Made by a program: the position numbers and the translations under genes
The notes under the pieces: model-generated
What the model was told of the DNA's origin: nothing
The model's database searches: none
What the model saw: the letters and a program-made list of their open reading frames with translations, nothing else
Assembly (NCBI GenBank): GCA_964652835.1
Contig: CAZZCB010000001.1
Coordinates: 26,935 to 90,934, forward strand
DNA: 64,000 bases
From: an uncultured Candidatus Saccharibacteria bacterium
GTDB lineage: Bacteria > Patescibacteriota > Minisyncoccia > Phycocordibacterales > CSBR16-119
Direction: 5' to 3'
Shown here: positions 5,236-54,692 of the stretch, piece by piece
Layout: every line of letters starts with the position of its first letter
Position numbering within the stretch: the first letter of the stretch is position 1

Positions 5236-5467
5236 AACAGTGCTGGTTTTTAAGACAAATTATCTTAGTTTTTTAACGGTGCTCTCGTGTAGGGTCGTAA
5301 GTGGTGGATTAAAGCAAATCAAATAAATTTCTTAACCTGCCTGCCGGTAGGCAGGCGATATATTTTAAGCGTCAAAAACTATTCCGAGTAAGGTGAGAAA
5401 AAGGAAAACGGTGTTCCCATATGAGGTAGAAATCTCTTCAATTTTATTTTGCGGATATTTAAAAGCA

Positions 5468-5497
5468 GAAAGGGCGCTCCGATATCGGAGCGCCCTT
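5468..5497 (-). terminator. GC-rich terminator of the high-GC island gene 5600..6106
   Basis: agggcgctccgatatcggagcgccct perfect hairpin, followed on the minus strand by a T-run. Confidence 0.6.
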
Positions 5498-5599
5498 CTA
5501 TGTGGCATGTGGCTCGCCTGGTGATTACCTTAACGGGGTATTCCAGTGCGGGTCACGGGTTCATCGATCATGTGCGTGCCACTACCAGGCACACGATCT

Positions 5600-6106
5600 T
5601 CAGCATCGCAAGTAGCGCGGCATCGTCCAGGCAGGATGGCGCCGCAGCAGGGGCACCATCTGAGGCGCATGCTTTGCGACACCCACGAGGGGCAGGCCGG
5701 CGGCGGTCTTCTTGTTGTCCAGGCTGTAGCGGTCCTTCATGATCATGTTGTAGCACGATCGTTCGGGTTCCGTTGCGGCCAAGGGCAGCGCATTGCTCAC
5801 GGTCATCAGATCCAGGGCGGGGTTCAAGATGTAACGGTTGCCGTCCGTGTGATCGGATCGGTGCACGCCGGTCTCCTGGCCGTTGGCTTGCCCTGGGGCG
5901 GAATACATGATGTTGATGTCGATGTCGTTGCCCTGGTCCACCACCATGTCGGTGATGTCCTCGGCGGCCTGCTGGTCAGCGGTGATGCTCTTGATGAATT
6001 CATTATGGTCAGCCTTCGGCCCCGTATCGGGTGCCGCGAAGGCGGTCGGGCTGAACGCCACACAGGCGAACAGTCCCATGGAAAGGAACAATGCTTTCGT
6101 TTTCAT
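5600..6106 (-). CDS. secreted protein of unknown function, high-GC island (about 60% GC)
   Basis: Signal peptide [24 protein letters not shown]. Codon usage is strikingly GC-rich relative to neighbours. No Shine-Dalgarno. Confidence 0.6.
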
Positions 6107-6156
6107 GCGAAAAGGATTTGGTTACAACCAACGAAATTGCTGGTCGTTTGTTTGGC

Positions 6157-6184
6157 AGTATAGCATATAATAAAAACTTGTCAA
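6157..6184 (-). promoter_or_regulatory. sigma70-type promoter (TTGACA-16-TGcTATACT) for island gene 5600..6106
   Basis: Minus strand reads gcTTGACAagtttttattatatgcTATACT. Same architecture as 5 other promoters in the window. Confidence 0.6.
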
Positions 6185-6288
6185 GCACTTTTATTTATGC
6201 TATAGTTTGTCTACCAAAAACCTTTATTTTAAGCCATTTTTTGGTAATTAATAAAAAATTACTAGACACTAATAACTATAAACCACAT

Positions 6289-6885
6289 ATGTTAATACCA
6301 ACAGTAATAGAAAAGACACATAACGGAGAACGGGCTTACGACATATACTCTCGCCTACTAAAGGAGCGGATTATCTTCCTGGGAACAGGGGTTGAAGAAA
6401 ACTCATCAAGTAACATAATCGCTCAACTTCTTTTTCTAGAATCAGAAGATCCTAAAAAAGATATATATATGTACGTAAACTCTCCAGGCGGAAACGTAAA
6501 AGACGGACTTGCGATAATAGACACAATGAATCATATCAAACCAGATGTGGCGACAGTTTGTGTAGGTATGGCAGCTTCAATGGGTGCAGTAATACTTTCA
6601 GCTGGAGCAAAAGGTAAGAGATTTATACTTCCAAACGCGGAAGTTATGATCCATCAACCACTTGGCGGAGTTGAAGGACAAGCTTCTGATATCGCTATAA
6701 CGGCAGACAGAATAATAAAGACGAAAGCTAAATTAAATAAAATCCTTGCAGAAAACACAGGTCAAAAAGTTGAAAAGGTTGAAAAAGACGGAGACAGAGA
6801 CTACTGGATGGACGCAAAAGAAGCAGTAAAGTACGGAATCGTAGACAAGATAATGGAGAAACCTAAATCTGGAATTAAGAAATAA
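6289..6885 (+). CDS. clpP: ATP-dependent Clp protease proteolytic subunit
   Basis: [10 protein letters not shown]...[14 protein letters not shown]...MIHQPLGG catalytic Ser/His motifs. The ORF-track N-extension from 6091 is non-homologous and overlaps the divergent promoter, so the start is set at the ATG at 6289. Confidence 0.9.
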
Positions 6886-6892
6886 AATAAAA

Positions 6893-6921
6893 AGACCCCG
6901 CACTTCGTGCGGGGTCTTTTT
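6893..6921. terminator. bidirectional terminator between clpP and the convergent 529-aa gene
   Basis: agaccccgcacttcgtgcggggtct hairpin flanked by A-run and T-run. Confidence 0.7.
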
Positions 6922-6924
6922 ATT

Positions 6925-8514
6925 TTATAGTCTACCTAAATCTACTCCGTACAAGTTCATATCGTGTTTGTTTATAAAGATAAAATAATCTTGTTTATCA
7001 TTTACAACCGGACTTGTAACATCTATTTGGCCTTTTATCTTATTTTGATCGAGTAATATTTTTGCAGTATTCGTCGCAACATCTATTTTCCAAATCATAT
7101 CTGAGAATAGAGTCTCCCCTTTATACCAGTCGTCTGGATAAGTGGCTGTTGGAACAGAAGATGGGGCGCCACAATAAATAGTTTTACTATCTTTTGTCCA
7201 TATACATTTTTCAGGAAGAGTTGTTGGGGCGAAATCTGAGATCTGTCCTGTTGCGATGTTTAATAAAGAAGTTTTTAAAGTCGCGTTTTCATATGAACTG
7301 TATAGAGCCTTTTTTCCATCTGGACTTATATTTGTCGTTAGCCCGTTTACGTTTGAGATTATATTTTTCAGACTATTATTTTTAACATCTAAGATATATG
7401 AGTTTCCTGGATATCTGCCAGATGCGCGAGTGGTTAAAGAAATAGTATTTTCAGATATAGCTTGAGGGATCCATTCTGAGAATTTTGATGACCAAACTTT
7501 TTTAGAAGCCCCTGTTTTAAAATCATATATCACGCCGTCCACACCAGAGGATTGTTTTAACAAGTAAAATATTTTTTGTCCTGAAGATATAGGAGAAACA
7601 AAAGTTATATTATTAGTCAGAAGTTTTGTTTCAAGCGTTGCATATTTTGCAGAGTCCCCCAAAAGAAGATCTGGCTTTTTAATACTCGCGACAACATTTT
7701 CAACAATACCGTCTTTAAGATATCTCATGAGCAAGAAGCTTTTTGTATTATCAAAATAAGACTCGTATACTCTAGCAACCTGAGAACTAGTAACTCTAGC
7801 AAGTGGCTCATTTGGTTTTATCGCCTTGTCAAAAATATATCCGTTTGATCTATCTACAAAACGGACAAGCTCTACAGTTTCCTTCAGAGGAGCTTTCGCC
7901 ACCTTTGGCACAATACCCTGGAATTCGTTAAGCTTCTTGTACATCATCGGACCCACAACTCCGTCCGGAGTTAGTCCGCTTTTGTCCTGGAATTCGATAA
8001 CTGCATTTTTTAGAGTTGTGTCAAAAGCGTTGTCTATAGCTAAAGACGGCGAAGGGTCTTGTCTATTCAAAACAGTTTTTAAATCTACAACCTCTTTCCT
8101 GTCGTCTCCAAATTTAAGAGATGGATATCCTGTAAAATCATACCCTTCTACCAAGTTCGCAGAAACTTCTTCTGGAACTATTATCTCTCTTTCGATATAA
8201 GTAAAGGTGGTGCCAGATACAGGCTCTTCACTTATTTTTTGAACTATTGGAGAATCTTCATTTGAAACAAAATCAACCTGAACAGGAACGGCTCCATCCC
8301 CTTCACCTTCTTCAGAACTGCCATCTCCCCCACTAGAATTATTCCCATCGCCCAAAGAAGTATCTTCTGAATTTATTCCAAAAGGATTTTCAATATTCGT
8401 CTGTATTTCCAGCGCATCTTTTTTGTTTTTTGCGCGAACCAAAATAATACCTAAAATAACAAGGCCGATAGCCAGAACTGAAACGAGTAAGATTTTAAAA
8501 AGTTTTTGTGACAT
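6925..8514 (-). CDS. membrane-anchored protein with peptidoglycan-binding domain and TolB-like beta-propeller repeats
   Basis: N-terminal TM. PG_binding_1-like LTPDGVVGPMMYKKL. Repeated SPDGKK / WD-like segments. Last gene of the T4SS-like operon. Confidence 0.55.
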   Translation of the reverse strand: MSQKLFKILLVSVLAIGLVILGIILVRAKNKKDALEIQTNIENPFGINSEDTSLGDGNNSSGGDGSSEEGEGDGAVPVQVDFVSNEDSPIVQKISEEPVSGTTFTYIEREIIVPEEVSANLVEGYDFTGYPSLKFGDDRKEVVDLKTVLNRQDPSPSLAIDNAFDTTLKNAVIEFQDKSGLTPDGVVGPMMYKKLNEFQGIVPKVAKAPLKETVELVRFVDRSNGYIFDKAIKPNEPLARVTSSQVARVYESYFDNTKSFLLMRYLKDGIVENVVASIKKPDLLLGDSAKYATLETKLLTNNITFVSPISSGQKIFYLLKQSSGVDGVIYDFKTGASKKVWSSKFSEWIPQAISENTISLTTRASGRYPGNSYILDVKNNSLKNIISNVNGLTTNISPDGKKALYSSYENATLKTSLLNIATGQISDFAPTTLPEKCIWTKDSKTIYCGAPSSVPTATYPDDWYKGETLFSDMIWKIDVATNTAKILLDQNKIKGQIDVTSPVVNDKQDYFIFINKHDMNLYGVDLGRL

Positions 8515-8516
8515 AT

Positions 8517-10049
8517 TTAGTTAAATGTTATGTGCCAATGTTTAGCGGTAGTGTTTCCTGTTGAGCCACTTGGTTCTGCGTAAAAACTTCCAACTCCATC
8601 AATATTAATCGTCTGACCGCTAGGGAAATTAGCGCTTGGGGATGGCCCTCCTGGTAAACCATTTAAGTATGTATTTAAAGATTCTGTAGCCCTCATGTCT
8701 ATAATCTTTTTATTTGGACCATGTGTGGAGTGAAGCCAGGCCTCACTCCCTCCTGTTATGACCATTTCACAGTTACAACTATTTTTAAAGGATATTATCT
8801 GCCCGATTACAGACTCAGCGGTTGAATCAAAATAAACAGAAGTACAATTTGGCGTACCAGCTGTTGGTGTACAGTTAGAATTACCGGAAGATGAAACAGA
8901 TATACCTGCAGCAGATAACTGACCTCTTTGCTGAGAATCATCTGGCCATGGCATTCCCATAACGATAGGTTGACCATTTAACATTGCAGTAGGTGCGATA
9001 TTTGTACCTGGTGTAGCATTACCGTTGTCCCATTCTCTTGTTGGTCCATCTAATGTGACTGTTGGTATTTTAATATTTAAATCCTCTGCAAGCTCTGGGT
9101 TTATTGTGTTTAATATAACCCAAGCGCCCAATGCTAAAACAAGTCCTGTTATTGCATTTACTATGTAACTTTTTCCCTTTCCTTTTTCTCCAAAAGACTC
9201 AGATGTTAGATATGTTATACCTCCAACAACAATCATTATCAGCGCCAAAAGTCCTGCGACAACTATAAGTATCGTGAACAGAGATTCAAGCCATTGACCC
9301 ACGTCTGGGTCCCCTGTGAATCCTGGAAGTGGTGCCAGAGGGGTGGTTGAATACTCACCTGAAACAACACCACCAGTGTTTATAACACCAGTTGTTGTTA
9401 TGTCTATGGTTGTATTATCCGTGCTACAAATACCACCATACGGTAAAGGGTTTGGCGCCTGACCGGCGCCGACGGGACATCCAAGTTGCCAGTACGTTTG
9501 ACATGAATAGTCACATTCATACATTAGCCCACTACCATTTTGAGATAGGTTAAAAATTTCTGGTGACCCTGTTATGCTGTCGTTAAATATTTTAATTGCA
9601 ATTATACAGTCCTCTATTCCTGCCACCGCCTCACACCCCCCCAAAACTCCTCGTTCTCCAACCAGAAGAGGTATTGAAAAGTCACTTGTTGTAGACTGAA
9701 AATCAGTAGAACCATTTGGTGACGAAGTAGAGTCAGTAAGTGCTATTTTTATTTCTTGTATTGGGACGACCTCGATACCAAATGATAATGTTGTACTAAA
9801 TTGAATATTTTGCAAAAGGACTCTGAATATATTTCCGCCAGTAGTATTACAATCTATAGTTTTTACATCTAGATATACAAATGGCCTAGGATCATCCTCG
9901 TACTGATTTATGGTAAACCAACCTTGGGGTCTGATGGACGTCTGACCAGATACTATCTCACAGGCCTCTACTGAGTGGGCGCCGGAAAAAACAAAAAAAC
10001 CTGTAAGGAAAAGAAAGACAGTTAAAAGATTTTTAATAAAACTATTCAT
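8517..10049 (-). CDS. T4SS-associated surface protein: signal peptide, internal double-TM hairpin, C-terminal putative zinc peptidase (M15/VanY-like) domain
   Basis: TM hairpin LFTILIVVAGLLALIMIVVGGITYL-TSESFGEKGKGKSY-IVNAITGLVLALGAWVIL resembles a VirB2/TrbC pilin-like hairpin. C-terminal HSTHGPNKKIID ... AKHWHITF resembles the H-x(6-7)-D ... HxH zinc ligands of M15 peptidases. Confidence 0.4.
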   Translation of the reverse strand: MNSFIKNLLTVFLFLTGFFVFSGAHSVEACEIVSGQTSIRPQGWFTINQYEDDPRPFVYLDVKTIDCNTTGGNIFRVLLQNIQFSTTLSFGIEVVPIQEIKIALTDSTSSPNGSTDFQSTTSDFSIPLLVGERGVLGGCEAVAGIEDCIIAIKIFNDSITGSPEIFNLSQNGSGLMYECDYSCQTYWQLGCPVGAGQAPNPLPYGGICSTDNTTIDITTTGVINTGGVVSGEYSTTPLAPLPGFTGDPDVGQWLESLFTILIVVAGLLALIMIVVGGITYLTSESFGEKGKGKSYIVNAITGLVLALGAWVILNTINPELAEDLNIKIPTVTLDGPTREWDNGNATPGTNIAPTAMLNGQPIVMGMPWPDDSQQRGQLSAAGISVSSSGNSNCTPTAGTPNCTSVYFDSTAESVIGQIISFKNSCNCEMVITGGSEAWLHSTHGPNKKIIDMRATESLNTYLNGLPGGPSPSANFPSGQTINIDGVGSFYAEPSGSTGNTTAKHWHITFN

Positions 10050-11010
10050 TTTCTGTAATATTTAATCTCAAAGGTCTTGAGTTTTCTTGTAATAACTCTG
10101 TCTTGTTGTTTGTTCTGAAATTTAAATCTACTGAATTAACATTTTGAGCAACATCAAGGAAAATCATATTAGGAAAATCTGTAGCAAAAACCCTGCCCCC
10201 CACCTTCCACTCAGTTAGAAGTGAGGGGTCTTTAAGATTTTTTGTGAAAATAAAATATGGCTCAGCTATTATGTTTATTTTTCTTTTATTGAAATTTTGA
10301 TCTGTTTTTACGGCTTTGTTATATAAAGGTCCGTAGGCAGAGCTAAATTCATAAAAGTGAACTTCACTGCTACCCGGGGTGATAGTAACGCTCTTTTCTA
10401 AAGACCTAGAAAGCCCGGCAGCCGAAACCTGAACTGAGTTTTGTTTATCTAAAATACCAGGAGAATAAAGGAAGCTGTTTTTTCCGTAGCCTGATTGGCC
10501 GGCAAAATTAGATCCGTCTTTATGCCAAGAATATACGAAAGTTTCCGGACTAGGAACAAAACCCTTACTGTTTGTAATCTGAGGAATAGCCACAACCTTT
10601 ATTCTGGACTGTTTTATAGGGATTATCTTACCTTTATAAAAAGGTGGCTCATATCCACCAACAACCTCCCAGAGGACATCCATAGAAGATGGGTTTATTT
10701 TTATAGAAGCTTCGAGACTACCCCCATTTATCTTGGCTATGCTTTTTATAGTATTTCCATTTTCACCAACAGAGAAAGAAAAGTTTTTTATTCCCTTTCC
10801 TTTACTTTCTAGCTTTCCGTCTTTATACCAAGAAATTTCTGAGTTATTTAGATCAAGACCAAAAGAAGAAACAGAAACGGAAACCATCTCACCAGGAGAA
10901 GGATAGCTTGGAGAAGATTTAAGCTCTAGAGACTGAGCGCCTACAAAAAAGGGCAACGCAAAAAAAACAAAGGCTGAGAATATTATTTTTTTTGACAAAA
11001 TGCCTTTCAT
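10042..11010 (-). CDS. secreted protein, unknown function (T4SS-like operon)
   Basis: Signal peptide MKGILSKKIIFSAFVFFALPFFVGAQS. Confidence 0.45.
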   Translation of the reverse strand: MKGILSKKIIFSAFVFFALPFFVGAQSLELKSSPSYPSPGEMVSVSVSSFGLDLNNSEISWYKDGKLESKGKGIKNFSFSVGENGNTIKSIAKINGGSLEASIKINPSSMDVLWEVVGGYEPPFYKGKIIPIKQSRIKVVAIPQITNSKGFVPSPETFVYSWHKDGSNFAGQSGYGKNSFLYSPGILDKQNSVQVSAAGLSRSLEKSVTITPGSSEVHFYEFSSAYGPLYNKAVKTDQNFNKRKINIIAEPYFIFTKNLKDPSLLTEWKVGGRVFATDFPNMIFLDVAQNVNSVDLNFRTNNKTELLQENSRPLRLNITENE

Positions 11011-11016
11011 AATAGT

Positions 11017-11661
11017 TTAAAATTTTAGCTCTTCCTCAACTTCTTTTTCAATATTTGATATCTCCCCTTTTATAGCATCAACTTTATTTAACTGACTTTC
11101 TATTTTTTGTTTTGATTCTTCAAGTTCTTTTATGTTTTCTATATCTTTAGCAATATCTTCTTTTACTTTTTTTAGATTATCTAATTCTTCTTTTACTTCT
11201 GTTTTTTTAAACCCGAGCTTTTCTACTATTTTAGAAAGCATCGACTGAAGACTTAAGATTTTTTCATTTAAGGATTCATTTTTCGCTGGAGCAGAAGAGT
11301 GTCCGACAGTTTGGTTAAACTCTTTTTCTAAATCAGAAATATTTGTTTCAACTTTATTTGGTAAAGGTTTTATTGGGTCAGTAGCCGGAGCGACGCTTTC
11401 CAAGGCCTCCTCTTTTGCCGGAGTAGATTTTTTATCCATCTGCTCTTTTAGTAAACTTAAATCTTCTTTGCTTCCTTGCGGAGCAAATTCTAAGCCTATT
11501 TTTTTAAGATCTGCATCGTCGCCCGACACAGGAGCACTATCTATATCTATAAATTCTTCTGTTTTGCTATCTCCAGATGACAAATCGACACCCGCATTAT
11601 GTAAAGTATCTTTCTCGCCACCAGTTATTTTATTATCTGTTGTTTTATTATCTGTATCCAT
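11017..11661 (-). CDS. acidic coiled-coil protein (T4SS-like operon)
   Basis: ORF track; low-complexity acidic N-terminus and K/E-rich coiled-coil C-terminus. Confidence 0.45.
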   Translation of the reverse strand: MDTDNKTTDNKITGGEKDTLHNAGVDLSSGDSKTEEFIDIDSAPVSGDDADLKKIGLEFAPQGSKEDLSLLKEQMDKKSTPAKEEALESVAPATDPIKPLPNKVETNISDLEKEFNQTVGHSSAPAKNESLNEKILSLQSMLSKIVEKLGFKKTEVKEELDNLKKVKEDIAKDIENIKELEESKQKIESQLNKVDAIKGEISNIEKEVEEELKF

Positions 11662-11713
11662 TGGCTTTATTATACCAAGAAGATACGAAAAAAGTCTTTA
11701 AATGTTGTGAATT

Positions 11714-13789: not shown

Positions 13790-13790
13790 A

Positions 13791-46619: not shown

Positions 46620-46631
46620 ATATTTAAGTTA

Positions 46632-46679: not shown

Positions 46680-46723
46680 CGACGAGTTTTCGTCGGCTCG
46701 AACTTCTTAGGCGCCGCTTAGTC

Positions 46724-47776
46724 CTACGAATCGTAGTGCCAAGCAGCGTCGAACACGGGTATCAAGAAATGTTTGCCAGACATCTTGTGCATCCGCGCCA
46801 ATTTCACAGCAACCGCAAACCCAGCCCTTCCTGTGCGACCAAACTCCGACAACGCTTCGTGGTGAAAGTCGTCCCACTTCACAACCCACTCACTTTTATC
46901 TGCCGGCTTAAAGCCAACAGATTCAATGAAGAGTTGATCTACGTAGTCGCTTGTCACCAATCCAACACCGTCGAGTAGTGGTATTGCCACATCAAGTGCG
47001 GGCATGGAAAAGGTGGTGTGAGAAGGTGATGATCCGGGTAAGTCATGTCGCAAAAACATGTCTGGGTTGATTCCAAAAATCCTTTCGTACTTCCCAGGAG
47101 GATAGTATTTGCGGTGAGCATTGCCAGATGCCACAGATTCAAACCCGAACACTTTCGATTGGGGAAAGAGTGACTTGAACCCGGTTGCCATGGGAAGTGC
47201 CGTGGTGCCATTACCCAAAGGGCAAATGACCACATCCGGTCGAATACCGGCTTCGACGACTTCTTCGACGAAGGGACGGAACGCATTAGTCGCAGCGTTG
47301 TTAATCGAAATTCCTCTCCCGAATATGTCACCCATCGCGTGGTTGATATATTTAGTTTCGGGATGTTTAGCAAGAAAAGCCTTGATAAACTCTGGGAATC
47401 CGTTCACGTACGCTTCGGCTGGCGTGAGGATAAGCTCCCCGCCAGCTTCTTCGATCGCCCGCTCACGAGCCTTCTCACCACCAGCAGGCACTGCGATCTT
47501 GATATTGTAACCAAGAGCAGTGGCAACTGCGGCTGCGGCACGTCCGCCACTGCCCGAAGTGGTTTCCAGAAGCGTGTCACCTGGCTTGATGAGGCCGAGG
47601 CACTCTTTCAAGTAGATGAGCTTCAGGAACACTCGGGAATAGTGGCACTCACCGTACGGCAACTTGTAGTCAAGTTTGAAGTGGTAAGTGTTACCCTCAA
47701 ACTCAATGGTTTCGATTGGCGAATTGCGGACTTCAGACATCATGCGTGTGTAGAGGTTTTTGCGCTGAGTGTTCAT
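46724..47776 (-). CDS. cysteine-synthase-like (PLP fold-type II) protein lacking the Schiff-base lysine, paralog 1
   Basis: Aligns along its length to CysK (TSGSGGRAAAAVATALGY, GEKARERAIE, LGNGTT). The SVKxR lysine motif is replaced by ECHYSR. About 52% GC. Confidence 0.7.
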   Translation of the reverse strand: MNTQRKNLYTRMMSEVRNSPIETIEFEGNTYHFKLDYKLPYGECHYSRVFLKLIYLKECLGLIKPGDTLLETTSGSGGRAAAAVATALGYNIKIAVPAGGEKARERAIEEAGGELILTPAEAYVNGFPEFIKAFLAKHPETKYINHAMGDIFGRGISINNAATNAFRPFVEEVVEAGIRPDVVICPLGNGTTALPMATGFKSLFPQSKVFGFESVASGNAHRKYYPPGKYERIFGINPDMFLRHDLPGSSPSHTTFSMPALDVAIPLLDGVGLVTSDYVDQLFIESVGFKPADKSEWVVKWDDFHHEALSEFGRTGRAGFAVAVKLARMHKMSGKHFLIPVFDAAWHYDS

Positions 47777-47790
47777 GATGGTTTATGTTA

Positions 47791-47809
47791 TGTGTTAGGC
47801 CTAAACACA
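47791..47809 (-). promoter_or_regulatory. 19-nt palindrome TGTGTTTAGGCCTAACACA, 14 nt upstream of the paralog-1 ATG
   Basis: Identical element with identical spacing upstream of paralog 2. Confidence 0.6.
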
Positions 47810-47850
47810 CAACATAAATTAATTTATATTTTTAAAAGAACTAAATATAT

Positions 47851-47897
47851 CTCCACTCTTTGAAAATTCCACCGAGGTGAAATTCTCAAAAGTAGAG
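47851..47897. repeat. palindromic intergenic element, copy 3 (CCACTCTTTGAAAA-N19-TCAAAAGTAGAG)
   Basis: The G-to-A change in the right arm gives a G-U wobble only if the element is transcribed from the minus strand. Confidence 0.8.
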
Positions 47898-48002
47898 ACA
47901 AGACCTTAGCCTTGTCTACTTTGGGTTGTTCGTCTCACGACGATCTTCAGTTTTAGGGGACCTTAGCTCCCTAACCAGAGGTTAGTCTGTCTGTGACTTT
48001 GA

Positions 48003-49103
48003 CTAGCTTTGTTTGGTTTTTTCCGTCTGCTCCCACCAGCTGTCGTAGCGGTTCGCGTGATCGTAGGCGACTATCAGGTAGTTTTGACCCTCGGTTTCCC
48101 GTGCCAAATTTTCTGCCACCTTATAGCCAGCCCAGGTCGTTCGACCGAAGGTCTTGAGCTCATTTGGGATGCCGGTGTCGAACACTATGGCATCTTTTGG
48201 GGGCTCTTGACCCGTGATCTCGGTGTACTCCCTGAGAGTGCTTGAATCCCAGACCAACTTCTCTGCTGCGAGAAGTGGCAAGGAAGCCTCCAGAGCGGGC
48301 ACATCGAAATGCACTCGGTAGCTCGTACCTGGCAACCTATGCCTTGAGAACTCTCCGCGTTGCGACAGGTTCATCCCGAACTCTTCTTCGAAGCGTCCAG
48401 GATAAAGTTTGTCGTACACGAAACCACTCTCAAAACTTTCGGCTCCAACGATCTTGACCGAAGGACACAACTCCTTGATCCTGCGACCATATCCGTTCTG
48501 GGTTGTCCCATTACCGGATATTGCCACAAAGACATCAGGGGTCACGTTCTCCATGTCGCGCAACGCTTCGTCTACCACGTTGGCACAGGCGGCCATCGCC
48601 TCTTCGTTCACCATGGGCACTTTCCCTTCCAGGACCATGCTGTGGTTAAAGAAGAAACAATCCCTATTTTTCGCAAGGAACTTCCTTGAGAAAACGGGTG
48701 CGCCGTCAACGTAAGCCAGAGAGTCAGTGAGGTGCAGTTGGTGTGAAGGAATCCACTCCAAGATTGCACGCTCACGAGCTTTTTCACCATCGGCAGGCAT
48801 CGCAACCTCGCACACATACCCGAGTTGGGCAGCGAGCGAAGCCATTGCGATGCCAGCGCTTCCACTGGTGAAATCGTAGACTCTTTGACCCGGCTTGATC
48901 AAACCCTTCTCTTCGAAGTGCTTGAACAAAGCCAAGTAGATACGGACATAGTGGTTGAAACCAGGAGCATTTTCACACTCGAGCTTCACAAACAACTTGT
49001 TCCCGTTGGGGAGCACGTTATTCATTTCCACTAATCGCGTGTTAGAGGTTTTCACCTCGAGGCGAGAGTAGAGTTGGGCGCGCTGAGTGTTCATGGGGTT
49101 CAT
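48003..49103 (-). CDS. cysteine-synthase-like protein lacking the Schiff-base lysine, paralog 2
   Basis: Same fold (TSGSAGIAMASLAAQLGY, GEKARERAILE, SGNGTT). SVKxR replaced by FNHYVR. Start set at ATG 49103 (MNPMNTQR). The ORF track starts at an upstream GTG (49136) inside the leader palindrome. Confidence 0.7.
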   Translation of the reverse strand: MNPMNTQRAQLYSRLEVKTSNTRLVEMNNVLPNGNKLFVKLECENAPGFNHYVRIYLALFKHFEEKGLIKPGQRVYDFTSGSAGIAMASLAAQLGYVCEVAMPADGEKARERAILEWIPSHQLHLTDSLAYVDGAPVFSRKFLAKNRDCFFFNHSMVLEGKVPMVNEEAMAACANVVDEALRDMENVTPDVFVAISGNGTTQNGYGRRIKELCPSVKIVGAESFESGFVYDKLYPGRFEEEFGMNLSQRGEFSRHRLPGTSYRVHFDVPALEASLPLLAAEKLVWDSSTLREYTEITGQEPPKDAIVFDTGIPNELKTFGRTTWAGYKVAENLARETEGQNYLIVAYDHANRYDSWWEQTEKTKQS

Positions 49104-49116
49104 GGGGTTAGGGTTA

Positions 49117-49135
49117 TGTGTTAGGCCTAAACACA
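49117..49135 (-). promoter_or_regulatory. 19-nt palindrome TGTGTTTAGGCCTAACACA, 14 nt upstream of the paralog-2 ATG
   Basis: See 47791..47809. Confidence 0.6.
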
Positions 49136-49188
49136 CAACCGAAACCTTTTCTGAAACTGAATCTTTTCGATGAACAACTTTCTGGACA

Positions 49189-49218
49189 TATCATAGCAGG
49201 TTTTGTCAATCTTGTCAA
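49189..49218 (-). promoter_or_regulatory. sigma70 promoter (tandem TTGACA TTGACA -18- TGcTATGAT) for the cysK-like pair
   Basis: Minus strand reads TTGACAagaTTGACAaaacctgcTATGAT. Confidence 0.55.
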
Positions 49219-49328
49219 ATTACTTTTTATATTTTGTTATATTTTTTCTAAAAAAACGTTGTGAATCAATGTTTAAAAACTGTTGATAACCTCTTTACAA
49301 CAATGAGTATTTTTAGTAGCATTTAGAC

Positions 49329-50090
49329 ATGGAAGATAAATTAAAAAGGCTAGGACTTACAGATAATGAAATAAAGGTGTATTTGTGTGTTCTTGAAAAC
49401 ACTAAAATAACCCCAGCAATGATTGCTCGAAAAACAGGCGTAACCCGCCCTACCTCCTACGGAGTAGGTAAATCTCTGGTAGAAAAAGGCTTTATTTTAG
49501 CCGACGAGCTCAGTCCAACGCTGTATTTCGTCGCCCTGCCCCCAGAAAACATAATAAAGTCTGTAAAAAAAGAAAGGCTTGAAATAGAAGAAAAGATAAA
49601 AATAGCAGAAGAGCTGAGTGCGGAGCTTTTATCTGTGCCAAAATCTAAAAACTATTCTGTGCCAAAAGTCAGATTTATAGACGAACACAGCTTTAAAGAC
49701 TTTATGTATGAAAGAGCTCCCGTTTGGAACAGCTCCGGACTTGCCGGCGACGGCACATGGTGGGGTTTCCAAGATCATGGACTTATAGACTATATTCCAG
49801 ACTGGTTTAAATGGTATTTTGATTTTTCTGCAGGGAAAATTAAATCAAACCTCATAACAAACGCCGAAGAAAGTGTGATGATTGGCGACAAGCTGCACGA
49901 GAAATATGAAAGACGGGCTAAATATTGGGCTGGTGCGGATAAAATAAAAGTTACGTATTCTGTTTTAGGTGACTTTGTTTTTATTGCAAACACACAAAGT
50001 AAGCCACACTATGTGGTGGAAATCCACGACGCTGTGATAGCTGAAAATATGCGACAAATCTTTAAGGGCTTTTGGGAGATGTTGCCTTAA
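49329..50090 (+). CDS. TrmB-family HTH transcriptional regulator
   Basis: N-terminal LGLTDNEIKVYLCVLENTKITPAMIARKTGVTRPTSYGVGKSLVEKGFI winged-helix region typical of TrmB. Divergent from the cysK-like pair. Confidence 0.55.
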   Translation: MEDKLKRLGLTDNEIKVYLCVLENTKITPAMIARKTGVTRPTSYGVGKSLVEKGFILADELSPTLYFVALPPENIIKSVKKERLEIEEKIKIAEELSAELLSVPKSKNYSVPKVRFIDEHSFKDFMYERAPVWNSSGLAGDGTWWGFQDHGLIDYIPDWFKWYFDFSAGKIKSNLITNAEESVMIGDKLHEKYERRAKYWAGADKIKVTYSVLGDFVFIANTQSKPHYVVEIHDAVIAENMRQIFKGFWEMLP

Positions 50091-50106
50091 GGGGTAAAAT
50101 ATAAAA

Positions 50107-50928
50107 ATGAATAATCTTTTTCTTATACAAATATTATCTTCTTTTTTAATTGGCGGAATTTTAATATCAGCCCTAACTTTCTGGTCTGAAAAACTAAATA
50201 GTAAATTGTCGGGGATCGTCGTCTCATTTCCAACAACTGTTGTTCTAGGTTTTATATTTTTATCTTGGGTTTCATCCCCAGAAATAATTCCCGAGGTTGC
50301 ACCTACCGCTATTGCAGTTTTAGGGGCCACAACACTGTTTACAAACTTTTATTCAAAAACTTCTATAAAGATTAGCAGGATTGTTAAACAAAAAATATTT
50401 CAAATAGCACTATCGTTTCTGATAAGTAGCGCCATGTGGATCATTATCTCGTCTATTATTGTGTCGCTTAAAATAAGTCTACCTATTTCGATTTTTGTTT
50501 ATTTTATACTAATGACAATAAGTCATTTGTGGTTTAAAGAAGGAAACAAAAATAAAACAAAAGATCTTATTAAGATTAAAAAATACAACTTGTCACAAAA
50601 AATATTTCGCGGAATATTTGTTGGAATAATCGTTGTTCTTATAACAATATTAAGTAAAACTTTAACCTCTTTTTGGGGTAGTGTTTTTTCTGTTTTCCCG
50701 GCAGCTTTTTCGTCGGTTCTAATGATCTACCACTTTAATTATGGAACACAAAAACTATCTCTTGTTTCTCGAAATATGCCGATTGGATCAATATCTATAT
50801 TAATATATATTTTAGGCTGTTATTTTACTTTTCCAATTATGGGTGTGCTTTTGAGCACACTAATTTCTTTATTATTTAGTCTAATTACTTCAGTCTTTTT
50901 ATTTAAAATAAAAACTCACCGAGGGTAA
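50107..50928 (+). CDS. polytopic membrane protein (about 8 TM), unknown function
   Basis: ORF track; hydrophobic throughout. Confidence 0.5.
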   Translation: MNNLFLIQILSSFLIGGILISALTFWSEKLNSKLSGIVVSFPTTVVLGFIFLSWVSSPEIIPEVAPTAIAVLGATTLFTNFYSKTSIKISRIVKQKIFQIALSFLISSAMWIIISSIIVSLKISLPISIFVYFILMTISHLWFKEGNKNKTKDLIKIKKYNLSQKIFRGIFVGIIVVLITILSKTLTSFWGSVFSVFPAAFSSVLMIYHFNYGTQKLSLVSRNMPIGSISILIYILGCYFTFPIMGVLLSTLISLLFSLITSVFLFKIKTHRG

Positions 50929-50932
50929 GTTT

Positions 50933-51463
50933 TTATTTTTTGTTTAGTTTTAATAAATTATCCACCGCCTTTTTGTAGGAAGAAGTAAAATAAATTTTGT
51001 CTTTAGAATACTTTTTCTTTGATATTTTTATTATTGTTTTAAGATAATCTGTTATTCCGTCCGTTCCCTCTAAAACAGAAACTGGTAAACCTTCTTCTAT
51101 CGCAATAGTAAATTCTGAAAGCGTGCCTATCCGGCCGTTTAAAACGATGGCGCCGTCAATACTTTTTATCATTGCCAAACTTCTGGCGGTAAAACCGGGG
51201 ATGAATTTTTTGTTGCGATAGAAATCGAGACAGTGATTGTCGTGACGTTTATCGTGGTCTTTTTTATTTTTATCTGGAGAGTAGACGGATGTTTTTCCTC
51301 CGAGTTTATATGTGTGTTCAGCGATAATACCTGGAATCCCTAAAGATCCGCCAGTAACAACTTCTACACCTTTTTCTTTTAAATATTCTGCGATACTTTT
51401 TGCAAGTTTTTTATTTTTACTTGAAACTTTAAAGCTCGCCGAACTAAAAATTCCTATTTTCAT
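50933..51463 (-). CDS. LOG-family (TIGR00725/TIGR00730-type) Rossmann-fold protein
   Basis: VTGGSLGIPGIIAE and NGRIGTLSEFTIAIEEG resemble the LOG GGGxG ... PGGxGTxxE motifs. Confidence 0.55.
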   Translation of the reverse strand: MKIGIFSSASFKVSSKNKKLAKSIAEYLKEKGVEVVTGGSLGIPGIIAEHTYKLGGKTSVYSPDKNKKDHDKRHDNHCLDFYRNKKFIPGFTARSLAMIKSIDGAIVLNGRIGTLSEFTIAIEEGLPVSVLEGTDGITDYLKTIIKISKKKYSKDKIYFTSSYKKAVDNLLKLNKK

Positions 51464-51464
51464 G

Positions 51465-52145
51465 TTAACGTTTCTTAAATTTCATAACCATAAACCCTGG
51501 ATAAATATCTCCATCAATTTTTTCTGCAGCTGGATCATATCTTTCGTCGAACAATTCAAGATTAAACTTACTTAATATTTCTGGAGAAAAATATTCATAA
51601 AAAGTATGGGTTGGTTCTTTTACAGTTAGTGATCCATTAAACAAAACAGAATCTACAATTTTTGTTTTGAAGTAATTTTTGTTTTTACCTCTTCTTTCCA
51701 TGTATTGTCTTAATGGGTGTGTAACCAATAGAATAAAATATCCATTCTTTTTTAAAAGCCTGTGAGCTTCGCTAAAAACCTTACCAATATTTTTTGATGT
51801 TTGCATTGCATATTTACTCACAACTAAATCAAAGCTTTTATCTGGAAATTTCACTTTCTCAAAGTCAGAGAGTTTTATATTTTCAGAAAAAGATGGATTG
51901 TTTATTTTTGCCATTTTTATAAATTCCAAAGACATATCTACTCCGTAAACAACGGCTCCTAATTTTGAGTAGTAGTTCATATCCTTGCCATCTCCACAAC
52001 CTAGATCAAGGATTTTTTTATTTTTAATATCTTTTGACAAAACTTCATAAAGAACAGCCCTATTAACCCAATTTTGGTCTTCGTGTGTATTTGAAAATAC
52101 GATTGCTATTTCTTCATATTGTTTTTTTATTCTTAATGTTTTCAT
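51465..52145 (-). CDS. class I SAM-dependent methyltransferase
   Basis: ILDLGCGDGKDMNYYSKLGAVVYGVDMS (motif I). Stop is 1 nt from the LOG-family start. Confidence 0.8.
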   Translation of the reverse strand: MKTLRIKKQYEEIAIVFSNTHEDQNWVNRAVLYEVLSKDIKNKKILDLGCGDGKDMNYYSKLGAVVYGVDMSLEFIKMAKINNPSFSENIKLSDFEKVKFPDKSFDLVVSKYAMQTSKNIGKVFSEAHRLLKKNGYFILLVTHPLRQYMERRGKNKNYFKTKIVDSVLFNGSLTVKEPTHTFYEYFSPEILSKFNLELFDERYDPAAEKIDGDIYPGFMVMKFKKR

Positions 52146-52245
52146 ATGTCTTAAATAGTATCGGAAAGTCTTGACATTATCAAAATATATGCCTAAATAT
52201 AGATATTATTAAACTTTTAGTTTAAAAAATGATATACTTGCCTAC

Positions 52246-53070
52246 ATGATTCCGTTGCAAAACAACAACATTGAAGAAATTGCCTTTTTATTTTTTTTAA
52301 AGAAAGAGGGCACGGCATTTGATCTAAAAAATCATTTGGATGACTTGGGTAAAAATGTAACTATTCAAGGTGTATACAAATCACTAAATAAGCTCATAAA
52401 ACAAGGGGTTTTAATAAAAAATAAAAAGAAAATGGTTGTTAGCCAGGAATGGCTTCAAAATTTGATAAATAAACTTGGTGGTGAAGGACCAACCCCTAAA
52501 ATAAAAGATGGTGAGTCAACAACACACCAATTTAACTCTTTAAAAAAACTAGATATGTACTGGAAACATATAACTAAGTCTGTTGGATTGGAGTTTGGTG
52601 ATTTCCCCATTTTTTCTTATGAACCACATGAAATATGGATTCATCTCAAAGATAGAGAGGAAAGCCAGAAGGAGTTTTTTAAAAGCTTCGATAAGCATAA
52701 AAGGTTTGGTTTTTTTAGGATTGGTGGAACAGATTTTGGAGATAAGCAATATAAAAAAGATTTTGCGAGCAAATATGTAAACGTCGATATTGATGAGAAA
52801 AGAATATTAAATGATTATATTGTTGTTATTGGAGACTACATAGTGAAAACTAAACTCAAAAAAGAAACAGCTGTAAAAATTGATGATGTTTTTAAGAAGG
52901 AAGTTAATATAAAAGGTATCCAGGAAAACCTAAATAAGTTCTTAACAGATAAACAAAAAGTTAAACTAATCATAGAAAGAAACAAAAACAAGGCTAAGTT
53001 ACTTAGAAAGAAAATGTCTAGAGAGTTTTACATCCCCCAAGAGCTTATTAAAAAGTATGATTTGTTTTAG
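52246..53070 (+). CDS. hypothetical protein with N-terminal winged-helix-like region
   Basis: ORF track; PadR/wHTH-like first 70 aa; weak. Confidence 0.35.
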   Translation: MIPLQNNNIEEIAFLFFLKKEGTAFDLKNHLDDLGKNVTIQGVYKSLNKLIKQGVLIKNKKKMVVSQEWLQNLINKLGGEGPTPKIKDGESTTHQFNSLKKLDMYWKHITKSVGLEFGDFPIFSYEPHEIWIHLKDREESQKEFFKSFDKHKRFGFFRIGGTDFGDKQYKKDFASKYVNVDIDEKRILNDYIVVIGDYIVKTKLKKETAVKIDDVFKKEVNIKGIQENLNKFLTDKQKVKLIIERNKNKAKLLRKKMSREFYIPQELIKKYDLF

Positions 53071-53080
53071 AATATAGAAT

Positions 53081-53560
53081 ATGAAAATAATCGGTATAGA
53101 TCCAGGGTATGAGCGGGTTGGGATTGCGGTTTTGGAGAAAAACAAAACTGACCGCAAGGAAAATGTTCTGTACTCAAACTGTTTTAAGACGAATGCAAAG
53201 ATGTCGCTCGACGAGCGGATATTTTTGATTGGAAAAGAAATAGAAAAAGTTATAAAAGAATTCTCTCCAGAAGTGATGGCTATTGAAAAACTTTTTTTTG
53301 AAAACAATGCGAAGACTGCGATGGGAGTTTCTGAGGCGCGCGGGGCGATAGTTTTCGTCGCGCAAAACCTGGGACTAAAAGTTCTACAGTACACACCGCT
53401 TCAAATAAAAAGCGCTGTGACAGGATATGGAAAGGCAGATAAAAGTGCTGTACATATGATGGTTCATAAACTGGTTACTCTGCCAAAAGAGGTAAAACAA
53501 GACGATGAAATCGACGCAGTCGCTGTGGCTATCACAGGATTTGCGACGGAAAGATTTTAA
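53081..53560 (+). CDS. ruvC: Holliday junction resolvase RuvC
   Basis: IIGIDPGYERVGIAV ... DEIDAVAVAITG catalytic acidic residues. Confidence 0.85.
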   Translation: MKIIGIDPGYERVGIAVLEKNKTDRKENVLYSNCFKTNAKMSLDERIFLIGKEIEKVIKEFSPEVMAIEKLFFENNAKTAMGVSEARGAIVFVAQNLGLKVLQYTPLQIKSAVTGYGKADKSAVHMMVHKLVTLPKEVKQDDEIDAVAVAITGFATERF

Positions 53561-53647
53561 TTTCCCCAAAAGCTGTTTTTCCCTCTTGCCTTTAATAAGG
53601 CTTTCTGCTAAAAATAGCGTAATTATAATAATCAATTTTAAAAACAC

Positions 53648-53857
53648 ATGGGACACGACGATTTACTTGGAGAGGATTTGTTTGCAAGTGAGTTAGATGA
53701 TGATTTACTGATCGGGGCTGATCTACCAGAAGAACTGGATCCGCTAGACGAAGTTCTTCCTGCTGAGGAAGAGGCTCTGGGTCTCGATGATGAAGATTTG
53801 TTAGATGAAGATGATGAAGATTATTCTGGAGGATACAATCCAGACGAGTGGAATTAA
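53648..53857 (+). CDS. small hyper-acidic protein (69 aa, about 45% D/E)
   Basis: ORF track; followed by a GC hairpin at 53868-53897. Confidence 0.4.
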   Translation: MGHDDLLGEDLFASELDDDLLIGADLPEELDPLDEVLPAEEEALGLDDEDLLDEDDEDYSGGYNPDEWN

Positions 53858-53939
53858 AGATGAAATAAAGAGGGGCGCCCGAGGGGCGCGCCTCTTTATT
53901 TATATCTAATTCTCACAGTGAGATTTGTTGTTATGTAGA

Positions 53940-53968
53940 TTGACAAAAACACTTTTTAGTGCTATGGT
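53940..53968 (+). promoter_or_regulatory. sigma70 promoter (TTGACA-17-TGcTATGGT) for 54001..54678
   Basis: ttgacaaaaacactttttagtgctatggt. Confidence 0.6.
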
Positions 53969-54000
53969 GACACAGAAGTTCTTACCAAACCCCATCAACC

Positions 54001-54678
54001 ATGAGTACGAAAAACTTTTCAATCGCTCTTTTGGGGCTTGTTATTGTAACAATCCTCTACCTTGTTTTAAGGTGTGACCGCTTTCCTGGAAAAGAAGTCC
54101 AGCGCAGCAAGCCGGCAATATCCACGGAATACAAAAAGAAGTTGGGCGAGTCTGAGTGGAAGCACTTTGACTATGCGGTCAAGGAGTGTCGAGCGGTTTT
54201 TGAAGCTGACACGTTTCTTGTTCAAAACGCTCACTTTTGGGAAAAACACAACATCGAACCGGCCGTCGGTTACGCTGCGTGGCTTTTCCAAGAAACGCGT
54301 TTCAGGGGCGACACCATTGGAGACAGTGGAACAGCCTATGGATACGGACAAATTCATGGTCCTGCCTTAGAGGAGATGAACCAAATTCGCGCAGAAAGAG
54401 GGTGGCAACAATACTCACTACCAGATCTTCATGGAAGGTCGCGAGAAAGGCTAAGGTTCTTTCTTCAGTCTCTTCATGACTACACAGATCTGTGTGAGAA
54501 AAGGTACAGCCGTAAAAGGAACCTTGATGCAGACCTGAATGCATGGAACGGTGGCGGCAAGAATGGGAAAACCAGGGAAACAAAATACTCTGGCGAGATC
54601 AAGTCTGTCGTCCTCCAATACTACGAGAGGAAGAAGGTTGAGGAAGCGAAACAGAAAGGGGTTAGCGCCAAGCGCTAA
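54001..54678 (+). CDS. membrane-anchored protein, possible lytic-transglycosylase/lysozyme-like fold, elevated GC (about 48%)
   Basis: N-terminal TM. WLFQETRFRGDTIGDSGTAYGYGQIHGP loosely resembles the SLT E-S...G..Q active-site region. C-rich SD-less leader aaccccatcaaccATG. Confidence 0.35.
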   Translation: MSTKNFSIALLGLVIVTILYLVLRCDRFPGKEVQRSKPAISTEYKKKLGESEWKHFDYAVKECRAVFEADTFLVQNAHFWEKHNIEPAVGYAAWLFQETRFRGDTIGDSGTAYGYGQIHGPALEEMNQIRAERGWQQYSLPDLHGRSRERLRFFLQSLHDYTDLCEKRYSRKRNLDADLNAWNGGGKNGKTRETKYSGEIKSVVLQYYERKKVEEAKQKGVSAKR

Positions 54679-54683
54679 CCCCT
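54659..54683 (+). terminator. terminator overlapping the stop codon of 54001..54678
   Basis: ggggttagcgc-caa-gcgctaacccc perfect 11-bp stem. Confidence 0.6.
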
Positions 54684-54692
54684 TCGCCTTTT

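Follow-up and report, generated by a model that had tools for sequence, protein, structure and literature searches.

Five GC-rich islands interrupt the AT-richer backbone of the 64-kb stretch of DNA analysed here, a contig segment from an uncultured Candidatus Saccharibacteria bacterium that we refer to as the window. These islands are best explained as a second class of genes found throughout the clade, and we see about an even chance that they are cassettes exchanged within a compositionally mixed gene pool of Patescibacteria. Each unit would be self-contained, with a near-consensus sigma-70 promoter carrying an extended -10 element, an A/C-rich, T-poor leader lacking a Shine-Dalgarno (SD) sequence, a GC-rich coding sequence (CDS) and a hairpin terminator, and the units would occupy a fixed set of slots, each with conserved housekeeping genes on either side. 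The contents of these slots would make up the flexible genome of the clade, namely narrow, lineage-restricted families of secreted and membrane proteins (a porin-like beta-barrel, a Gly-rich surface protein and wall-hydrolase-like proteins) together with a TrmB-linked array of PALP and short-chain dehydrogenase/reductase (SDR) genes. Recombination among related Patescibacteria would replace, shuffle and mosaicise the cassettes much faster than the backbone diverges, with the cassettes keeping their own composition, be it above or below that of the resident genome. The likely route would be DNA uptake followed by homologous recombination, anchored by the conserved flanks, promoters and terminators and, in the array, by repeated 47-nt hairpins. 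We infer the donors, the direction of transfer, the recombination route and the persistence of GC content in long-resident slots.

The whole window has a GC content of 0.380. In 400-bp sliding windows, GC content peaked at 0.615 in island 1 (positions 5601-6000), 0.53 in island 2 (34001-34400), 0.482 in island 4 (45201-45600) and 0.475 in island 6 (54001-54400); it was 0.525-0.563 across 39201-40800 in island 3 and 0.49-0.545 across 46801-47600 and 48001-49200 in island 5. Islands 4 and 5 adjoin and are counted together. The GC-rich signal is carried by seven open reading frames (ORFs) in the five islands, all on the reverse strand except the last. Their GC contents at third codon positions (GC3) are 0.80 for isl1 (5600-6106), 0.59 for isl2 (33896-34594), 0.54 for isl3 (38997-40913), 0.53 for isl4 (45187-45792), 0.56 for isl5a (46724-47776), 0.63 for isl5b (48003-49103) and 0.51 for isl6 (54001-54678, forward strand). 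Against a set of 42 backbone genes with a mean GC3 of 0.287 (sd 0.048, maximum 0.39), these values correspond to z = 4.7-10.7. The preliminary description of the window had recognised the same five islands, and the sliding-window profile, the GC3 scores and the codon usage all bear it out; its estimate of about 33% GC for the backbone was too low, the actual value being 36-38%.

Island codon usage is a different regime from that of the backbone. The Arg codon AGA has a share of 0.04 in the islands versus 0.56 in the backbone, the Ile codon ATA 0.13 versus 0.41, the Lys codon AAA 0.42 versus 0.80, and A at the third position 0.16 versus 0.37; G-ending codons for Lys and Glu are also raised in the islands. 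Island codon usage correlated with that of its own backbone at r = 0.39, with that of native (non-island) genes of two GC-richer contigs, L096 and L095, at r = 0.75-0.78, and with that of native genes of L005 at r = 0.69. The compositional shift extends approximately from the transcription start to the terminator, the untranslated regions (UTRs) included. An SDR oxidoreductase gene within island 4/5 (45939-46619, reverse strand), between isl4 and isl5a, has a GC content of only 0.29 (GC3 0.18), and its codon usage correlates with that of the backbone at 0.72. A useful comparator outside the islands is a secreted DUF11-domain protein gene (unit 37286-38834, CDS 37286-38758, reverse strand; 490 aa, GC 0.36, GC3 0.24), whose PF01345 domain was labelled 'CLIPPER' in the look-up, a name kept as a nickname only. 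This gene has hypervariable patches and backbone composition, with a codon-usage correlation of 0.92. Two simple causes of the island GC content are not supported: translational selection, because rpmH uses backbone codons (GC3 0.18) while the islands raise G-ending Lys and Glu codons; and the combination of high expression, secretion and hypervariability as a sufficient cause, because the DUF11 gene unites all three and is nevertheless low in GC.

The islands are correctly assembled, and a chimera is excluded. One Logan contig, from SRR15237806, matches window positions 38441-43596 at 100% identity and spans both isl3 junctions. Further Logan contigs cover ClpP-isl1 and RuvC-isl6-TyrS, the isl1 copies on Logan contigs L076 and L077 are identical, and independent metagenome-assembled genomes (MAGs) and contigs of other projects hold GC-rich genes at the same positions. 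Contaminant fragments mis-joined into a low-GC contig during assembly or binning would explain why the composition steps are sharp and gene-sized, but such an artefact is exceedingly improbable given identical junctions in independent Logan assemblies, orthologous islands in MAGs from other studies and samples, and composition that switches at the promoter and terminator, with host-type promoters fused to island leaders. The preliminary description had already judged chimeric assembly to be the less likely explanation, rightly in view of junctions reproduced in these assemblies and in MAGs of unrelated studies.

The backbone is that of a Patescibacteria chromosome near the replication origin (dnaA/dnaN), and its genes include dnaA, dnaN, rnpA/rpmH, yidC, a VirB4-type type IV secretion system (T4SS) cluster, PilB, RuvB, YebC and RuvC. 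The closest named relatives of the window are Candidatus Paceibacterota MAGs. The clade was found by a PilB scan of species-representative genomes, which yielded a close group with PilB 79-91% identical (L011, L013, L014, L015 and L019, where L015 is the same genome as L002) and many remoter Paceibacterota with PilB 53-62% identical. A very close relative, L004, has backbone proteins 97-100% identical to those of the window. The islands are flanked by chromosomal genes, namely those for trigger factor (TF) and ClpP, PNPase and a tRNA, PilB, YebC and RuvC, and TyrS.

The isl3 slot lies between PilB and the DUF11 gene. Its transcription unit (38939-41013, reverse strand) has a promoter at 40985-41013, a CDS at 38997-40913 (638 aa), a hairpin GAGTCttgGACTC in the 5'UTR at 40960-40972 and, downstream of the gene, a hairpin without a T-run at 38939-38959. 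In 7 of 7 clade genomes this slot holds an isl3-family gene of 550-670 aa with a GC content of 0.49-0.58 and a GC3 of 0.45-0.59. Amino acid identity within the family spans 28-91% while that of PilB is 79-99%; relative to the window protein it is 91% in L004, 71% over the N-terminal part in L014, 46-48% in L019, and about 30% in L002, L013 and L011. The promoter and 5'UTR, including the hairpin, are kept in all seven genomes even though CDS identity drops to 28%. Codons 211-270 are 0.82-0.87 identical to L014 and only 0.68-0.77 to L004, whereas the sequences on either side are 0.96-1.00 identical to L004, a pattern that implies recombination and mosaic alleles. The product is a modular secreted protein: a signal-peptide-like N-terminus is followed by a variable N-terminal domain, one of two alternative middle modules, a stretch rich in Gly and aromatic residues, the conserved motif NRW-SGGS-VWNGY and a tail that is long, basic and disordered-looking.

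The isl1 slot lies between TF and ClpP. The isl1 unit (5469-6184, reverse strand) is divergent to ClpP (within ORF 6091-6885) and comprises a promoter at 6157-6184 (TTGACA-16-TATACT with TG), an A/C-rich 5'UTR, a CDS at 5600-6106 (168 aa with a signal-peptide-like N-terminus), a GC-rich 3'UTR and a terminator hairpin at 5469-5498. The same slot holds a 160-aa homologue in L089 (47% identity, GC3 0.75; TF 82%), a partial homologue in L087 (37% identity, GC3 0.74), genes of GC 0.55-0.56 in L084 and L082, and a different small gene in L081, L085 and L086; isl1 is missing beside TF in L088 although TF there is 98.7% identical. A long imperfect palindrome (5157-5272; 122 nt, 77% self-complementary) lies between the trigger factor gene and the isl1 terminator.

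At the TyrS slot, the isl6 unit (53940-54695, forward strand) has a promoter at 53940-53968, a leader with accaaaccccatcaacc, a CDS at 54001-54678 (225 aa with an N-terminal anchor and an E-T-x-F...GYGQI motif) and a hairpin overlapping the stop codon at about 54657-54683. This slot carries a frameshifted isl6 homologue (34% identity) in L002 and non-homologous membrane-anchored proteins with sub-threshold Glucosaminidase matches (E ~1e-5) in L013 and L014. GC-rich genes occupy the isl3, isl1 and isl6 slots in most sampled relatives. The slots predate the clade, their contents turn over, and the islands are therefore not fresh independent insertions.

The isl2 unit (33854-34683, reverse strand), with a promoter at 34655-34683, an A/C-rich leader, a CDS at 33896-34594 (232 aa) and a terminator at 33854-33879, lies immediately downstream of a tRNA-Val(CAC) gene (34735-34808) that has its own terminator at 34702-34734; isl2 is the only island that adjoins a tRNA gene. 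Its homologue in L004 is 66% identical while the neighbouring proteins are 97-100% identical. The terminators of tRNA-Val and isl2 are alike (GAAGGCCCGT...GGGCCTTTTTC), so that a terminator direct repeat brackets the promoter, leader and CDS of isl2, as is also the case in L004 (about 13219-13258 and 14060-14096). At 13127-13217, L004 has a tRNA-Val homologue that ARAGORN did not call and that, by eye, has some 20 nt inserted in the region of the anticodon arm. Compared with the window, L004 also has two insertions upstream, a gene for tRNA-Thr(TGT) and an additional gene of 169 aa.

In the scanned regions, the best sigma-70 matches (11-12 of 12 positions, with the extended -10 TG) belong to isl1, isl2, isl3 and isl5b, and the low-GC DUF11 gene has an equally good promoter (a perfect 12/12 at 38806-38834). 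The isl6 promoter, TTGACA-17-TATGGT with TG, was taken directly from the sequence, and no consensus promoter of its own was found for isl5a. GC-rich hairpin terminators lie 3' of isl1, isl2, isl4 and isl5b. Backbone genes share both the type of promoter and the kind of terminator, for example at 34889-34929 after PNPase, and the upstream regions of all ORFs in the window contained no recognisable SD sequence. What distinguishes the GC-rich genes is leader composition. Across 199 genes of 13 related loci, with GC-rich genes defined as having a GC3 at least 0.15 above the locus median (n = 23), leaders of GC-rich genes contained more C (0.32 versus 0.14) and less T (0.14 versus 0.33) than those of other genes, with A and G unchanged (Mann-Whitney p = 2.7e-9). 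The C-rich leader is the only island-specific feature of the layout. The preliminary description had proposed a common layout for all islands, and with regard to promoters, C-rich leaders and terminators it was largely right, although isl5a lacks a consensus promoter; as a hallmark of islands, however, only the leader holds, since the lack of SD sequences, the promoters and the GC-hairpin terminators are genome-wide. Leaders in the backbone are rich in A and T, and position -3 is usually A. For several genes, PilB at 41094 among them, the -10 box is no more than about 10 nt away from the start codon, a hint of leaderless or near-leaderless mRNAs.

Islands 4 and 5 form an array of co-oriented genes next to a divergent gene for a TrmB-family regulator (49329-50090, forward strand, GC 0.40). 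The first array gene, isl5b (48003-49218, reverse strand), has a promoter TTGACA-17-TATGAT with TG at 49190-49218 and a CDS at 48003-49103 encoding a 366-aa PALP protein. It is followed by its paralogue isl5a (46724-47776, reverse strand; 350 aa, 38% identical to isl5b), a fold-type II pyridoxal-phosphate (PLP) enzyme of the PALP family, by the SDR gene, and by the last cassette, isl4 (45148-45865, reverse strand), with a promoter-like TTGACT-18-TATATT at 45836-45865, an A/C-rich leader, a CDS at 45187-45792 (201 aa with an N-terminal membrane anchor) and a terminator at 45148-45169. YebC comes next. Other CPR genomes retain the divergent arrangement of TrmB and PALP, which recurs in L002, L005, L006 and L078; the array is missing in L004, L013 and L014, where YebC lies close to RuvC. 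In L078 the order is PALP, a 190-aa gene, SDR and isl4, and in L002 it is PALP, the 190-aa gene, SDR and a 136-aa gene; the slot of isl5a thus holds an unrelated GC-rich gene of 190 aa in both, and the position of isl4 in L002 an unrelated lipoprotein-like gene. Isl5b is 94% identical in L002 and L078, the SDR gene is 91% identical in these loci and low in GC (0.29) in all three arrays, and isl4 is 93.5% identical in L078 and L079; a more distant isl4 homologue (33%) lies on the GC-rich contig L095. Overall, array genes are 91-95% identical between genomes whose YebC is 65-69% and whose TrmB is 73-83% identical. As array identity is far above that of the flanking YebC and TrmB, the array was transferred more recently than the backbones diverged; it has moved horizontally and has been reshuffled between strains. 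Its genes are of mixed composition, combining GC contents of 0.46-0.53 with the 0.29 of the SDR gene. The cassette-like insertion that the preliminary description offered as an alternative fits island 4/5, where array members differ between strains.

Isl5a and isl5b have the same leader (47782-47818 and 49107-49139, reverse strand), in which the start codon is preceded at a distance of about 10-20 nt by a near-palindrome, TGTGTTTAGGCCTAACACA, and the PALP leader with this element is also kept in L002 and L078; it could be a TrmB operator or a translational hairpin. Genes neighbouring the array encode TrmB, a membrane protein with DUF3147, an LDcluster4 protein, a methyltransferase, YebC and RuvC. 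The interval from YebC to RuvC (45100-53080, 8 kb), in which the array lies together with the genes for TrmB, DUF3147, LDcluster4 and the methyltransferase and with an ORFan of 274 aa, is variable as a whole; it is missing from L004, L013 and L014, and in L019 and L078 it contains other genes, including toxin-antitoxin and NYN genes. On the other side of YebC, between it and RuvB, there is an Avd-like four-helix-bundle gene (44226-44585), also not there in L004, L013 and L014; its orthologue in L002 matches PF05635 and, weakly, bAvd.

Each junction of the array carries a 47-nt element, CCACTTTTGAG-N-TTTTCAAAGAGTGG, with conserved arms and a covarying inner stem, and in every case it sits right behind a terminator, in the gap between two co-oriented genes of a TrmB-PALP array. 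The window contains three copies on the reverse strand: one between SDR and isl4 (45869-45915; 70.2 bits on the gene strand versus 26.2 antisense), one between isl5a and SDR (46632-46678, 71.8 bits), whose annotated end at 46632 is only 12 nt from the SDR start codon, and one between isl5b and isl5a (47851-47897, 66.8 bits), directly after a terminator hairpin at 47896-47917. A covariance model found these three, four in L002 (6799-6845, 11199-11245, 11886-11932 and 12656-12702), three in L078, two in L079, two in L096 (1110-1156 and 1539-1585) and one in L095 (1373-1418), plus two weak matches in the remoter loci L016 (33 bits) and L018 (24 bits). An alignment of 11 distinct copies gives a consensus stem of 19 bp, of which 6 pairs have undergone compensatory changes; the element scores 59-75 bits on the gene strand and 18-30 on the opposite strand. 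Because the score is strand-specific and the element follows a terminator, it would be compatible with an RNA hairpin between cistrons that acts in processing or attenuation. The repeats might also supply short homology for shuffling of the array. As a general boundary of islands the hairpin was rejected, since the covariance model finds none at isl1, isl2, isl3 or isl6. An Rfam scan gave no match for the leaders or for the 47-nt hairpin, and returned the tRNA only.

With regard to the island products, the preliminary description held that all are exported or membrane proteins. This is the case for five of them, which have signal-peptide-like or anchor-like N-termini, and not for the two PALP enzymes, which have neither. 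It had also called isl2 a beta-barrel outer-membrane protein (OMP), which now has support as a fold prediction. Isl2 has a signal-peptide-like N-terminus and ends in ...AAVNF, with a C-terminal Phe. Its AlphaFold2 model (pLDDT 84.7, pTM 0.74) consists of an N-terminal (signal) helix and 12 predicted strands, and the best Foldseek matches in the PDB were all outer-membrane barrels (TMq 0.40-0.49), including OmpC/F, OmpM1, Omp33, OMPLA and FapF, with porins among them; no Pfam OMP family matched. These results support the prediction of an outer-membrane-type transmembrane beta-barrel. A porin-like protein is odd here, because Patescibacteria have been proposed to lack an outer membrane (PMC12102498).

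The isl2 family is tiny, with 6 relatives among 1.84 billion cluster representatives. Three relatives were traced, two of them with usable context on Patescibacteria-like contigs: L095 (6.2 kb, GC 0.505) and L096 (from GCA_964615845.1, GC 0.46). Both contigs also carry a homologue of isl4 or of the 136-aa gene of L002, and both have the same TTGACA...TGnTAT promoters, A/C-rich leaders and 47-nt hairpin. A methyltransferase gene homologous to the one at 51465-52145 in the window has a GC content of 0.35 in the 0.46-GC L096.

The two genes that had been described as CysK-like encode fold-type II PLP enzymes, as they pass the Pfam PALP threshold, and the more specific assignment falls away, their scores of 48-80 bits being below every CysK/CysM NCBIfam equivalog cut-off (344-394). 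Their subfamily numbers 48 proteins, and those with a named source come from Moraniibacteriota, Paceibacterota, and Nanoarchaeota or Pacearchaeota. In L005, a genome of the Candidate Phyla Radiation (CPR) with 54% GC, the TrmB-PALP-SDR module is of native composition (PALP GC3 0.64); in L006 (41% GC) the PALP gene has a GC3 of 0.53 with neighbours at 0.31-0.47; and in L009 its GC3 of 0.41 is below that of its neighbours (mostly 0.5-0.76). For isl6, an N-terminal anchor is consistent with the earlier description as membrane-anchored, whereas the transglycosylase-like part depends on weak lysozyme signals: the Phage_lysozyme2 match (E = 0.0089) is below threshold, the AlphaFold2 model (pLDDT 42) is unusable, and a PDB sequence search gave chance-level matches only. 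No family was detectable for isl1 or isl4. Every island homologue found was on a Patescibacteria-like contig. Scans of viral contigs for isl1, isl2, isl4 and isl6 revealed no relatives, nor did tblastn of isl1 against plasmids or of isl3 against phages give a match. The homology searches had poor recall, missing a known cluster representative and the queries' own entries.

The GC contrast is attributed to gene flow within a mixed pool because the cassettes keep their composition and their codons resemble those of GC-richer relatives (46-54% GC). This reading agrees with a transfer survey of aquifer Patescibacteria, according to which 83.2% of the transfers detected into these organisms came from other Patescibacteria (PMC12455944). 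Several observations weigh against it. No donor allele was identified for any island, and homologues of isl3 and isl1 were found only in the low-GC clade. Among orthologues at 28-47% identity, GC3 is kept at 0.45-0.59 for isl3 and 0.74-0.82 for isl1; as synonymous sites must be saturated and GC3 persists all the same, either continual re-import or a force acting in situ is needed. Genes of the isl2 family lie above the resident backbone even in GC-richer genomes (0.60 versus ~0.45 in L096, 0.58 versus ~0.50 in L095), which looks like an offset intrinsic to the gene. Polarised substitutions in isl3 (window/L004 pair with outgroups), few and biased by parsimony, comprise 17 changes from A/T to G/C and 23 in the reverse direction. 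Finally, a narrow distribution is firmly shown for isl2 only.

Some of these points would be accommodated if the islands were resident genes whose high GC and low T contents are actively upheld, a possible explanation although a doubtful one. Selection might act on the mRNA, favouring A/C leaders that stay unstructured for SD-less initiation, fewer A/U-rich RNase sites and long-lived, abundant transcripts, or GC-biased gene conversion (gBGC) might act at unusually recombining loci. Maintenance in situ fits the persistence of the GC offset across deeply diverged positional orthologues and, for the isl2 family, above the backbone in GC-richer genomes; it also fits a shift that spans the whole transcription unit with its UTRs, leaders with C in place of T and no change in A or G, promoters that are the strongest consensus matches in the region, and the mosaic recombination demonstrated in isl3. 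Moreover, recombining bacterial genes have a higher GC3 in 11 of 14 groups (PMC4450053). On the other hand, neither rpmH nor the DUF11 gene shows the shift, the latter in spite of its perfect promoter, secretion and hypervariability; the offset is negative in certain cassettes, namely SDR wherever it occurs, the L096 methyltransferase and the L009 PALP gene; and the polarised isl3 substitutions lack an excess toward G/C. A shift in GC3 from 0.29 to 0.5-0.8 also looks well beyond the usual effects of gBGC in bacteria. Repeated, independent capture of single genes from a high-GC host or neighbour outside the CPR, as the preliminary description had suggested, could account for a GC3 of 0.80 in isl1 with codon choices typical of high-GC bacteria, for the isl2 fold, which is usually that of proteins in diderm outer membranes, when Patescibacteria are proposed to have no such membrane (PMC12102498), and for the tRNA gene adjoining isl2. 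We consider such capture quite unlikely, however, and the case for it is weakened: the slots, and the isl3 promoter, are conserved across the clade; all homologues found are on Patescibacteria-like contigs; the isl2 family, with its six members, includes none from a broad OMP family; the PALP relatives of named origin belong to the CPR or DPANN; homologues in CPR relatives of higher GC content come with the same promoter and leader signals; and plasmid or phage relatives were not found for the proteins tested.

Diversity-generating retroelements (DGRs) are abundant in CPR genomes, and targeted hypermutation of surface-protein genes by such an element might be envisaged from the hypervariability of the island coding sequences and from the Avd-like gene of the 23S-rRNA-IVP family at 44226-44585 (forward strand). 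The chance of this is minimal: self-comparison of the window revealed no pair of template and variable repeats, no reverse transcriptase was noticed among the annotated ORFs of the window (annotation being partial), and divergence spans whole genes, including non-homologous replacement. A bolder proposal extends the exchange of cassettes to a dedicated system for keeping and exchanging host-interaction genes. It would consist of fixed expression slots with conserved strong promoters and SD-less A/C leaders, of CDSs that are exchanged or mosaicised while their high GC content is actively upheld, and of an integrase-less, hairpin-delimited array under TrmB control, with the porin-like barrel inserted into the outer membrane of a diderm host to tap nutrients; as a whole this is unlikely.

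Exchange of cassettes within a Patescibacteria pool has partial parallels elsewhere. Phage morons are single genes with their own promoter and terminator and of atypical composition, located between conserved phage genes. The islands are likewise autonomous promoter-gene-terminator units of atypical composition between conserved syntenic genes, but their flanks are chromosomal housekeeping genes rather than a prophage, the slots are conserved in the clade, and searches with the island proteins tested found no relatives in phages or on viral contigs. Integron arrays and clusters of attC sites lacking integrases (CALINs) resemble island 4/5 in having co-oriented genes of mixed GC content, members that differ between strains at repeat boundaries, and a structured repeat between the genes, its outer arms conserved and its inner stem covarying. 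However, attC sites are 57-141 nt long with RYYYAAC ... GTTRRRY cores while the array element is a constant 47 nt without such cores, and the array repeat, unlike those of integrons or CALINs, follows a terminator and has a strongly strand-specific covariance score; this suits an RNA element no less well than it does a site of DNA recombination. A tblastn search of the window with one CPR XerC-like integrase, of limited sensitivity, found no tyrosine recombinase or integrase at E <= 10. An integron was rejected for the array, for which that query gave no integrase homologue in the window and which has no attC-type core. Among the features of a tRNA-linked island, similar terminators flank the isl2 cassette in the window and in L004, and an integrase was not found with that single tblastn query.

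The O-antigen and capsule loci of enterobacteria and pneumococci are surface-antigen loci of atypical GC content at which alleles are replaced between conserved flanks. The islands share with them a fixed position, conserved flanks, divergent or non-homologous alleles, atypical composition and mosaic recombination, and differ in having a single gene per locus, a shift to higher GC and products that are proteins, not polysaccharide pathways. As in the aquifer survey, transfer would take place mostly within the phylum and involve membrane and host-interaction functions; fixed single-gene slots, A/C leaders, a persistent GC offset and a hairpin-delimited array are not described in the passages of that survey consulted (PMC12455944). 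Horizontal gene transfer within Patescibacteria, islets of atypical GC content, morons and cassette arrays are all of already known kinds. In the literature searched, we found no account of fixed single-gene slots with strong promoters and an A/C-rich, SD-less leader tied to GC-rich hypervariable CDSs, nor of an integrase-less array delimited by a covarying 47-nt hairpin.

Other features of the window lie apart from the islands. A T4SS-type cluster at 6925-20135 (reverse strand) contains several large secreted ORFans, a VirB4-like gene (11714-13789) and a gene for a T4SS_pilin-domain protein (8517-10049), and by eye a small pilin-like gene at 21041-21445 was counted with it; the cluster agrees with the monoderm-type T4SS known from Patescibacteria (PMC12102498). 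Positions 599-778 hold a perfect tandem repeat whose period is 69 bp (599-709 being identical to 668-778), inside or adjoining small ORFs at 590-904. A 1700-aa ORF at 24228-29330 (reverse strand) has backbone composition.

Patescibacteria are ultra-small and host-dependent, and the means by which they attach to and exploit their hosts are largely obscure. The sequence pattern alone marks strongly promoted, secreted and rapidly replaced genes as candidates for the host interface, among them a porin-like barrel in a lineage thought to be without an outer membrane. It also follows that a GC anomaly by itself misdates transfers, as several islands are older than the clade and have not drifted to the resident GC content. 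The tight link between A/C-rich leaders and GC-rich genes bears on how translation is initiated in the CPR without SD sequences, and the covarying 47-nt hairpin bears on the dynamics of operons and cassettes in these organisms.

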